A stretch of DNA of 32,000 nucleotides from Candidatus Saccharimonadota bacterium (GCF_029232205.1 NZ_CP107255.1:360001-392000), one strand, 5' to 3'. Shown: positions 19,388 through 21,478, counted from the stretch's first letter. The notes: a model not told the origin generated them from the letters alone. Translations and numbers: made by a program.

Positions 19388-21466
19388 CTACTTTATCTTG
19401 CTGCCAATACTCATCTCTTGATCGGTGGTCAACAATGACACATTACCGGAATCATCTTCAGCAGCTAGCATCATACATTCACTCGTCTCGCCTCGCAGTT
19501 CTGCTGGCTCAAGGTTCGCTAAAACTACTACTTTACGGCCTTCGAGCTCTTCTGCTTCGTAATGGTTTCTGAGGCCTGCACAGGTCTGAAGAGTGGTTTC
19601 GCCCACATCGATCTGTACCTTATAAAGCCTGTCAGCGTTTGGATGATCCTCTACGGAGAGAACCTCTCCTACTCGGATATCCATTTCTCCAAACTCCTCG
19701 AAGCTTACGGTTTCAATGTTCAAAACGTTGTCCTCTTCTGATTCTTCTTCCATAGTATCAACCTTGTCCTTCTGCTCTGAAACGTCGATCTTCTCAAATA
19801 AAATCTCTCTTTCTCCAAGCTCTCTGCCAGCTTCCACAGGCCTGAGATCATCTTCCGAAAGAAGGTCCTGCTCGCTGTCAATCTGTGAATCTTCTCCTAG
19901 CATGCTCATGATCTTTTCACTGCTTTCCGGAATGAATGGGTAGAGTGTGCAACCCAGTTTATTGATAATCTGCAGGGCAACGTAGATTGTCTCCTCTCTG
20001 CGATCCTCATTGTTCCACGGCTCCTCCTCTGAAAGATACCTGTCACCGGCTCTCGCAAGCGCAAGGCCTCTGTCAAGAGCTTCTTTCGGAGATCGTTCCT
20101 CAAACTTTGAATTATACTCTTCTACCAGGCCTTCTACTTCTTCAAGCATTTCTCTATCATCTTCAGTAAGATCTGCTTCCGGCACTTCGTTGTCGAACCA
20201 TTGCTCGGCAAGGCTGAGAGTCCTGTTGACGAAGTTTCCTACCGTGTCGTTCAACACGTTGTTGATCTCGGACTCGAAGTCGTCCCAGGAAAAGTTGGTA
20301 TCGTGGTCTGTTGGAAGCATTTTGGCAAGGTAGAACCTCCAGTAATCCGCAGGATAGTACTCTACGGCCTCATCGATGAATATTCCACGGTTTCTGGACT
20401 TCGAGAAAGCTCCGTCCTCCCACATCAAGTACTGCTGGATAAACTCATACTCCGGAAGCCCGTACTCGATTTCTTCGTTTCTTGATCCGAGAAGCATTGT
20501 AGGCCAGATAACTGTGTGGAAAATAGCATTGTCTTTTCCGATAGAGTAGAAAATATCTGCATCAGTGTTCCAGTGATCCTTCCACTCATCTGAATCCTCG
20601 AAAAGCTCTCTGGTAAACCCAATATATCCGATAGGGGCGTCAAACCACACGTACAGAACTTTTTCATCATAGACTTCCGGATCAAGTTTTTCAACGTCAA
20701 GGTCTTCTTCCTCGATTCTCTCATTTGCCCTTTCTACAGGAATCTGGAATCCCCAGTCCTGATCGCGTGTAATTGACCGGTCCTCGGCCTCCTCCAGGTC
20801 GTGAAGAATCTGTTTCTCCATGTTTTCTGGCACAGGTTTCTCATCTTTGATCCAGGCCTTAATTTCGTCCTTGAACTCTGTCAGGTCAAGGAAAAGGTGA
20901 TCGGTATCTCTGAACTCGATATTATTTCCGTTACAGATCTGGCATTCTGCATTTTCTATTTCCTTGGGCTCAACCAGTTTTCCACAGTCATCGCACTGGT
21001 CTCCTCGTGCAAGGCCTCCGCAGTGAGGGCATTCTCCTTCAATGTATCTATCGGGGAGGAATCTTTCATCGTCCTCACAGTAGGCCATGTTCTGTGTTTT
21101 CTCGTTGATCAGGCCGTTGCAGTAAAGTTCTTCGAACATGTCGTGAGTCTGTTTCCTGTTGTATTCTGAGTGAGTGTCTGAGAAGATTGTGAAGTCTACG
21201 TTCAGGCTTTCGTAGGCTTCTTTGACTTTCTGTGTTTGTTCGTCTTTGATGTCTCGTGGGTCCTCCCCTCTTTCCAGGGCTTCCAGTTCCAGTGGTGTGC
21301 CGTGGACGTCGCCTCCGCAGACGAAGATGTTTTCTGTACCTCTCACATCGTAGTATCTGTGTAGTAGCTCTGCTGGAAGCACGGATCCTGCCATGTTACC
21401 GAGGTGGGGTACTCCGTGGATGTAAGGTAGTGCTGATGTGATCGTAACTCGTTCTTCGTCTGCGAT
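19388..21466 (-). CDS. metG: Methionyl-tRNA synthetase (eukaryote/archaeal type) with C-terminal EMAP/Trbp111-like tRNA-binding domain; start appears non-canonical
   Basis: Motifs: FVCGGDVHGTP, a Cys-knuckle insertion (CPHCG...CDDCG), KFSKSRN-type loop (AFSKSRNRG), C-terminal IRVGEVLSVEDHPNADRLYKVQIDVGE. The HIGH-equivalent ITSALPYIHGVPHLGN lies in frame upstream of the first ATG (21394). The frame opens at 21472 after a TGA. I placed the start at ATC 21466 (6 nt after AGGTGA); this is uncertain. Confidence 0.9.
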   Translation of the reverse strand: MADEERVTITSALPYIHGVPHLGNMAGSVLPAELLHRYYDVRGTENIFVCGGDVHGTPLELEALERGEDPRDIKDEQTQKVKEAYESLNVDFTIFSDTHSEYNRKQTHDMFEELYCNGLINEKTQNMAYCEDDERFLPDRYIEGECPHCGGLARGDQCDDCGKLVEPKEIENAECQICNGNNIEFRDTDHLFLDLTEFKDEIKAWIKDEKPVPENMEKQILHDLEEAEDRSITRDQDWGFQIPVERANERIEEEDLDVEKLDPEVYDEKVLYVWFDAPIGYIGFTRELFEDSDEWKDHWNTDADIFYSIGKDNAIFHTVIWPTMLLGSRNEEIEYGLPEYEFIQQYLMWEDGAFSKSRNRGIFIDEAVEYYPADYWRFYLAKMLPTDHDTNFSWDDFESEINNVLNDTVGNFVNRTLSLAEQWFDNEVPEADLTEDDREMLEEVEGLVEEYNSKFEERSPKEALDRGLALARAGDRYLSEEEPWNNEDRREETIYVALQIINKLGCTLYPFIPESSEKIMSMLGEDSQIDSEQDLLSEDDLRPVEAGRELGEREILFEKIDVSEQKDKVDTMEEESEEDNVLNIETVSFEEFGEMDIRVGEVLSVEDHPNADRLYKVQIDVGETTLQTCAGLRNHYEAEELEGRKVVVLANLEPAELRGETSECMMLAAEDDSGNVSLLTTDQEMSIGSKIK

Positions 21467-21472
21467 AAATAT

Positions 21473-21478
21473 TCACCT
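21473..21478 (-). promoter_or_regulatory. Shine-Dalgarno AGGTGA (minus strand) upstream of the metG 5' extension
   Basis: The minus strand reads AGGTGA ATA TTT ATC GCA GAC... The TGA within the SD is the in-frame stop that bounds the ORF. Confidence 0.45.

Follow-up and report, generated by a model that had tools for sequence, protein, structure and literature searches.

Initiation at AUU or AUC is, to our knowledge, barely documented in Archaea, and in bacteria the pcnB gene of E. coli has an AUU start. The closest described system is bacterial infC, whose AUU/AUC start codon is the target of autoregulation by IF3; there the product itself rejects non-canonical starts and so closes the loop (PMC5499595), in which it differs from the product of metG, the gene considered here. 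In eukaryotes, a suboptimal start site likewise governs, reportedly, the expression of initiation components in the autoregulation of eIF1 and eIF5 (PMC3326321), and, unlike metG, these circuits work through scanning, Kozak context or uORFs, with the regulated proteins setting the stringency themselves. Within the Archaea, aIF1 of Sulfolobus is described as discriminating against non-canonical starts (as cited in PMC6237735 and PMC8211752).

The metG gene discussed below lies on the minus strand of a window of 32,000 nucleotides, that is, the whole stretch of DNA that was analysed, and all coordinates are counted from the first letter of the window unless a genome position is named. The host genome is nanohaloarchaeal and consists of a single contig of 1,046,959 bp (99.95% complete). 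Like infC, metG is a gene of the translation apparatus with what appears to be a Shine-Dalgarno (SD)-led, lineage-conserved AUU/AUC start, at which ATT alternates with ATC and only ATG commonly takes their place. Unlike infC, it belongs to an archaeal host, with aIF1/aIF2 and unformylated Met-tRNAi, and its start is conserved in about 79% of one archaeal family, where that of infC is near-universal; the likeness to infC is one of anatomy. Moreover, we know of no role of MetRS in codon inspection; its established task is the charging of tRNA-Met, and it is not counted among the initiation-fidelity factors. Literature searches found no paper describing the near-cognate start pattern at metG.

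A metG gene without a canonical start codon

As proposed, the coding sequence of metG occupies positions 19388–21466 on the minus strand (692 codons plus the stop) and encodes a MetRS of the archaeal/eukaryote type with a C-terminal tRNA-binding domain. Counted from the ATC codon proposed as the start, the Pfam domain tRNA-synt_1g (PF09334) is matched across residues 8–417 (3.4e-123), together with Anticodon_3 (PF19303) and, at residues 597–690, tRNA_bind (PF01588). The translation shows the HIGH-type motif TSALPY/PHLGN, the zinc knuckle CPHCG...CDDCG and the KMSKS-type loop FSKSR, which place the protein in the archaeal/eukaryote type, and the closest solved structures are those of P. abyssi (1rqg) and human (5gl7). 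A second MetRS copy in the genome, which the original prediction had made part of one of its refuting conditions, was looked for and rejected: this gene is the sole full-length MetRS, and the only other match, of 128 aa, is a paralog of its C-terminal tRNA-binding domain.

In the metG frame, the bounding TGA (21475–21473, minus strand) is followed by ATA TTT ATC GCA GAC GAA GAA CGA GTT ACG ATC ACA TCA GCA CTA CCT TAC, and the frame continues with ATC CAC GGA GTA CCC CAC CTC GGT AAC before it reaches the ATG at 21394. This reading, taken from the original prediction, was reproduced exactly in the sequence, the ORFs and the translation: between the TGA and ATG 21394 there are 26 in-frame codons, and none of them is ATG, GTG or TTG. 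Further upstream, the next in-frame stop, a TAA, lies four codons ahead of the TGA, and the interval holds no start codon; therefore, recoding the TGA gains nothing, and its reading as a sense codon was rejected. A standard ORF call begins at ATG 21394. This first canonical ATG (21392–21394, minus strand) is an internal Met, which opens the shortened public version of the protein (668 aa), and a start there misses the N-terminal 23 codons (21395–21463, minus strand), whose conservation is codon-periodic across 43 orthologs. TSALPY (21422–21439) and HLGN (21395–21406), both on the minus strand, lie within these 23 codons and thus 5′ of the first ATG, as had been claimed, and no canonical start precedes these indispensable residues. 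A protein begun at ATG 21394 would miss the first beta-strand and the HIGH-type TSALPY...PHLGN motif, because the Pfam and 1rqg alignments begin at residues 8 and 6: position 2 of the tRNA-synt_1g profile pairs with residue 8 counted from ATC, and residue 3 of the P. abyssi enzyme aligns to residue 6, the 1rqg chain beginning just two residues ahead of the aligned block.

Immediately in front of these codons stands AGGTGA (21473–21478, minus strand), 0 nt from ATA and 6 nt from ATC, where the original prediction had placed it, and its TGA (21473–21475) is the same in-frame stop that bounds the ORF. The 3′ end of the 16S rRNA of this genome, ...GGATCACCTCC (genome position 907878), is complementary to AGGTGA / GGAGGTGATCC, so that the element is a Shine-Dalgarno sequence by complementarity to its own 16S rRNA at a functional spacing. 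In a published survey the nanohaloarchaeal anti-SD is given as UCACCUCC, and about one-fifth of the genes use it (PMC10783764). Genome-wide, the ATG codons that open ORFs peak 6 nt past GGTG[AG], which is also the spacing of ATC at metG, and among the codons that open long ORFs at this distance, ATG (26), GTG (9) and TTG (7) are followed by ATC (6). Taken by itself, the genome-wide SD scan is too noisy, since GGT-GAN codons are frequent in the acidic proteome.

Orthologs and the conserved ATT/ATC codon

The 5′ ends of metG were compared among 43 species-level genomes of one family (Ca. Nanosalina, Nanohalobium, Nanohalococcus), as the original prediction had suggested. The element AGGTG[A/G/T] is present in 40 of the 43, and the in-frame codon 5–8 nt (mostly 6–7) past it reads ATC 19 times and ATT 15 times (L021, L050 and L053 being tallied as ATT despite a neighbouring ATA). 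ATY thus stands at the homologous position in 34 of the 43, and among the 20 genera with data it is found in 16. A pattern shared by so many family members is neither chance nor error. ATG is found at the SD-spaced position in three orthologs (L019 at 6 nt; L054 and L058 at 9 nt), and three more have no SD and an ATG start near TSALPY, which brings the ATG-bearing orthologs to 6 of 43, spread across several genera. Relatives with a canonical start, which according to the original prediction would speak against a near-cognate one, do therefore exist, three of them with ATG at the same position, whereas 34 keep ATT or ATC. Two orthologs with poor codons at the SD-spaced position (GTC in L006, TTC in L018) count against a start at AUC, as do three (L007, L042 and L044) in which the GTG of the SD itself is in frame and could serve as an alternative start; L031 probably starts at GTG.

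The feature that is kept across the orthologs is the spacing from SD to ATY, and the spacer bases beside the codon vary. Relative to the ORF, the GTG of AGGTG falls into the three phases in 17, 19 and 4 genomes, being in frame in 4 of 40, and because it is out of frame in the other 36, in both of the remaining phases, the AGGTGA element is judged to be non-coding. Downstream of ATY the picture is that of a coding sequence: over codons −4 to +5 around TSALPY in the 43 orthologs, the R/K-V-T-V codons between ATY and TSALPY have an entropy of about 0 at positions 1–2 and of 1.6–1.9 bits at position 3. This is textbook coding-type conservation, which argues that the codons from ATY to TSALPY are translated. 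In addition, an in-frame stop lies 7–11 codons before TSALPY in 10 of the ATY orthologs, and in L047 a TAG immediately adjoins ATC, so that there is no other start candidate in that genome.

The original prediction had left the choice between AUA and AUC open. Its near-cognate start behind AGGTGA finds strong support in the comparison, and of its two candidates the evidence favours ATC (21464–21466, minus strand), which stands 6 nt behind GGTGA and has ATC, ATT or ATG at the homologous codon of the relatives, over ATA, at 0 nt. In the same-genus genome G002, the closest relative, CCA stands where this genome has ATA, and ATC GCA GAC GAA is kept, and ATY is conserved at the SD spacing; the start is therefore placed at ATC 21466–21464 and not at ATA 21472. 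On these comparisons, the single MetRS gene of the genome almost certainly begins at the ATC six bases behind the ribosome-binding site.

For this gene there are public versions of 694 aa (M on ATA) and 668 aa (ATG 21394). The call P0002 opens with MFIADEERV; P0015, P0019, P0025 and P0027 all open with MAGSVLP, and dozens of ENA/JGI calls are shortened to MAGSVLP, MPHLGN or MHGVPHLGN. Among the NCBI MetRS records of relatives, those of Ca. Nanosalina sp. VS9-1, Ca. Nanohalococcus occultus and several MAGs carry their M on ATT/ATC already (P0077, MTDNRRV; P0093, MTEQRRV; P0036; P0068; P0089). However, the NCBI annotation is not consistent: for this genome and G002 it uses ATA, and for Ca. Nanohalobium constans the GTG that lies in frame within the SD.

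Promoter, transcript and other near-cognate starts

Upstream of metG lies an ORF of 85 aa without a Pfam match (21540–21797, minus strand), whose stop (21540–21542) leaves an intergenic region of 61 nt (21479–21539) upstream of AGGTGA that holds the metG promoter. The promoter, GAAAGCAGTTTAAAGAATTGC (21495–21515, minus strand), consists of BRE-like purines and the TATA box TTTAAA at 21502–21507; in several genera metG has the same motif in front of it, and the 12-mer core of the motif, GTTTAAAGAATT, occurs only once in this genome. From the end of the TATA box to GGTGA there are 24 nt here and 23–27 nt in most orthologs. Genome-wide, the first ATGs of long ORFs cluster 23–26 nt after TTTAAA, a leaderless signature, and since leaderless ATGs stand at this distance, the metG transcript is predicted to start at about AGGTGA itself. 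The ATC sits 35 nt after TTTAAA, outside the leaderless spacing, so that metG would not have a leaderless mRNA; its predicted transcript would carry a leader of about 12 nt, with the SD at the extreme 5′ end. Such a short-leader layout, from TATA box to SD, is found at only two other genes of this genome, which counts against a start at AUC.

The sister families suggest how this layout may have come about. In L026, L029 and L030, three genomes of the sister family f4, the element carries its GTG in frame at about 24 nt from a TATA box, and on these two grounds their start is probably a leaderless GTG. With L025 of family f3, which also has an in-frame GTG, four of the nine sister-family genomes have a plausible in-frame GTG start in or adjoining GGTG; in L022, another sister-family genome, the layout of an out-of-frame GTG plus ATC is already present. 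Plausibly, an earlier leaderless GUG start came to lie out of frame, and the GGUG context around it was retained as the SD for a downstream AUY. The arrangement of conserved TATA box, about 24 nt, AGGTGA, 6–7 nt and ATT/ATC is probably ancestral to the family of Nanosalina, Nanohalobium and Nanohalococcus.

That near-cognate starts are not confined to metG in this genome was seen in a survey combining the SD scan with a whole-genome, stop-to-stop ORF comparison with the complete relative G003, in which only extensions of at least 15 codons were kept and then checked against Pfam, as shadow ORFs and conserved promoters otherwise swamp the comparison. Among 661 genes compared, near-cognate starts were verified by Pfam in five, namely metG and four others. 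The E2 acyltransferase starts at an ATC 7 nt after GGTGA (lipoyl-domain profile positions 2–73 match residues 2–74, and no ATG occurs before codon 58), the PiT phosphate transporter at a CTG 6 nt after GGTGA, and a GT2 glycosyltransferase at an ATA lying 6 nt past AGGTGG; the ATC that opens a TctA-family permease stands 24 nt after a TATA box, so that this gene looks leaderless. The identity of these starts drifts: across the family the E2 start is ATY in about 10, ATG in about 11 and GTG or TTG in about 7 of 29 genomes, and the CTG of PiT is found in this genome only, with ATG or GTG in the relatives. Judged from E2, PiT and GT2, which lie behind the same SD, and from their drifting start codons, near-cognate starts behind a strong SD are tolerated lineage-wide, and by the same sequence comparison metG is distinct only by the consistency of its ATY (34 of 43), far above that of E2.

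The initiator tRNA and aIF1 of the genome look ordinary. The initiator tRNA is canonical, with the anticodon CAU, A1:U72 and three G:C pairs, and the aIF1 gene, which is not missing, opens with ATG; an unusual initiator tRNA or a missing aIF1, considered as candidate causes, were accordingly rejected.

Put together, these observations make it highly probable that metG is translated from AUC 21466–21464 behind AGGUGA. In this explanation, the 3′ end of the 16S rRNA would pair with AGGUGA six bases upstream of AUC and thereby place the small subunit, and the ordinary initiator Met-tRNA (CAU) would be accepted on AUC despite the mismatch at the third position, giving a full-length MetRS that opens with M-A-D-E-E-R-V-T-I-T-S-A-L-P-Y. 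Such a start is expected to be inefficient, and most likely it sets a modest rate of MetRS translation.

Alternative readings and the meaning of the start

Upon this explanation a further layer may be placed, namely that the ATY start is a selected, MetRS-specific regulatory device with infC-like feedback, which we consider improbable. Near-cognate initiation depends on the stringency of aIF1 and on the supply of Met-tRNAi, and for this reason the synthesis of MetRS would be coupled to the initiation machinery. A selected device would account for the retention of ATY by 34 of the 43 orthologs, from 16 genera, though one transversion makes ATG, for the greater steadiness of ATY here than at E2 (about 10 ATY, 11 ATG and 7 GTG/TTG of 29), and for the near absence of ATA and other codons at the start position of metG; infC is a bacterial example of such a circuit (PMC5499595), and aIF1 of Sulfolobus is described as discriminating against non-canonical starts (cited in PMC6237735). 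However, MetRS itself does not inspect start codons and the sign of the feedback is not clear, six orthologs over several genera have moved to ATG, and the unrelated E2, PiT, TctA and GT2 genes have near-cognate starts too. A conserved RNA structure or operator was looked for at the metG start and none was found (RNAalifold gave zero pairs on 30 orthologs), and neither aIF1, which starts at a normal ATG, nor the canonical initiator tRNA is unusual. An infC-like regulatory loop for MetRS has no obvious mechanistic basis and is speculation, and it stays so because other genes of the genome also need near-cognate starts. The parallel to infC autoregulation drawn in the original prediction is thus unsupported, in view of the four other near-cognate genes, the ordinary aIF1 and initiator tRNA, the lack of an RNA structure and the six relatives with ATG. 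In its fullest form, the idea would be that MetRS has been kept on AUU/AUC by way of a 5′-terminal SD and a leader of about 12 nt, derived from a leaderless GUG, and that its synthesis tracks stringency and Met-tRNAi, as an archaeal counterpart of infC; this too is doubtful.

Initiation at the ATA (21470–21472, minus strand), perhaps on a nearly leaderless transcript, is less likely again. This codon is the start chosen in the public call P0002 (694 aa), the predicted transcription start lies only about 6 nt upstream of it, and several phase-1 orthologs have ATA, ATC or ATT immediately after GGTGA. Its position is not conserved, however, being CCA in the same-genus G002 and AGC, ACC, ACT or TTA elsewhere, the 19 phase-2 genomes have it in another frame, and its SD spacing is zero as against the genome-wide peak at 6 nt, so that it is judged unlikely to be the real start.

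Another proposal, with very little probability, lets translation begin at a leaderless GUG inside AGGUGA and reach metG by a frameshift or by termination and reinitiation at ATY. Relative to the TATA box, this GTG is positioned exactly like the leaderless start codons; an in-frame GTG stands behind the same TATA spacing in the sister-family genomes L026, L029 and L030, and L025 has an in-frame GTG as well; the mini-ORF that opens with GTG stops, in some orthologs, no more than a few bases from ATY. Nevertheless, 17 genomes would require a shift of +1 and 19 a shift of −1, neither the peptide nor the position of the stop is conserved, and no slippery site or conserved structure was found. Since the ORFs in the GTG frame are 2–61 codons long and unconserved, a frameshift or an obligatory reinitiation is disfavoured. 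A frameshift from the overlapping frame of 85 codons or from the GTG of the SD was rejected likewise, as the phase of the GTG varies and the GTG-frame ORFs are unconserved.

Finally, the sequencing or assembly error that the original prediction had offered as its alternative, an indel concealing a canonical start, found no support, although an out-of-frame GTG and an upstream frame of 85 codons do exist, and it is effectively excluded by the same arrangement in dozens of independent assemblies, complete genomes included, and by three public calls (P0019, P0025 and P0027), 95–98% identical and recorded with longest contigs that differ in length from this genome's, that are shortened at the same internal Met.

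With the start at ATC 21466–21464 preferred, the true start of the essential metG gene is fixed, where many public calls shorten or extend it inconsistently, and a well-supported, family-wide case of AUU/AUC initiation in Archaea would be added. The AUY start is directly testable, because cultivated relatives bearing ATT exist, such as Ca. Nanohalococcus occultus SVXNc, for whose consortium RNA reads are available (PMC11001535). For the biology of the group, the finding means that nanohaloarchaea appear to tolerate near-cognate starts behind a strong SD in several genes; and if the weak start of MetRS were indeed regulatory, it would represent a new type of feedback in archaeal translation.

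Upstream region of metG and its exceptional orthologs

The promoter motif of metG, GAAAGCAGTTTAAAGAATTGC (window 21495-21515, minus strand), is conserved across several genera, and GTTTAAAGAATT, the 12-mer at its core, occurs only once in the genome that holds the window (G000). The role of the motif could go beyond that of a BRE/TATA; a regulator binding site is one candidate. Immediately upstream of this promoter lies an ORF of 85 aa (window 21540-21797, minus strand), for which a Pfam search returned no match. Besides metG, only two genes in G000 have the TATA/AGGTGA/start layout. 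One of them, at window 18857 (G000:C1:378857, plus strand), is arranged as TATA, about 27 nt, AGGTGA, 8 nt and ATG, and is part of the cluster of orphan acidic proteins lying just downstream of metG.

In three metG orthologs, the 5′ end carries neither a canonical start nor ATT/ATC at the SD-spaced position; the codon found there is GTC in locus L006 (genome G006), TTC in L018 (G019) and TTT in L027 (G026). Among these three genomes, G006 and G026 are draft assemblies, and their unusual 5′ ends could be assembly errors. In L018 the GGTGA is directly adjoined by ATC.

Near-cognate starts in other genes

The E2 dihydrolipoamide acyltransferase of G000 starts at ATC (L032:1523-1525 = G000:C1:41923-41925, minus strand), 7 nt after GGTGA, and its lipoyl domain would be lost if translation began at the first ATG. 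The identity of this start codon is not fixed across the family but drifts between ATT/ATC, ATG, GTG and TTG; a stop codon stands immediately before the ATT/ATC in some members (L062, L071, L078). The start of the PiT/PHO4 phosphate transporter is CTG, 6 nt after GGTGA (L034:1262-1264 = G000:C1:500460-500462, minus strand), a position occupied by ATG or GTG in orthologs.

In the GT2/DPMS-type glycosyltransferase, ATA is located 6 nt after AGGTGG (L175:312-314 = G000:C1:851039-851041, plus strand); this gene needs to start at ATA, or at the ACG just before it, and its earliest canonical start falls 73 residues inside the domain. For a TctA-family permease, the initial 157 codons of the open frame include no canonical start, and an ATC 24 nt after a TTTAAAT box (L174:1286-1288 = G000:C1:1019955-1019957, minus strand) is possibly a leaderless AUC start.

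tRNAs with CAU and UAU anticodons

ARAGORN found only two CAU tRNAs in G000, one being the initiator and the other an elongator Met tRNA with an intron, together with an intron-containing tRNA-Ile(UAU) (loci of this CAU/UAU set: G000:C1:524930-525058 and 313659-313800). This composition suggests that AUA is decoded through the UAU anticodon, and not by a CAU tRNA that carries the agmatidine modification.
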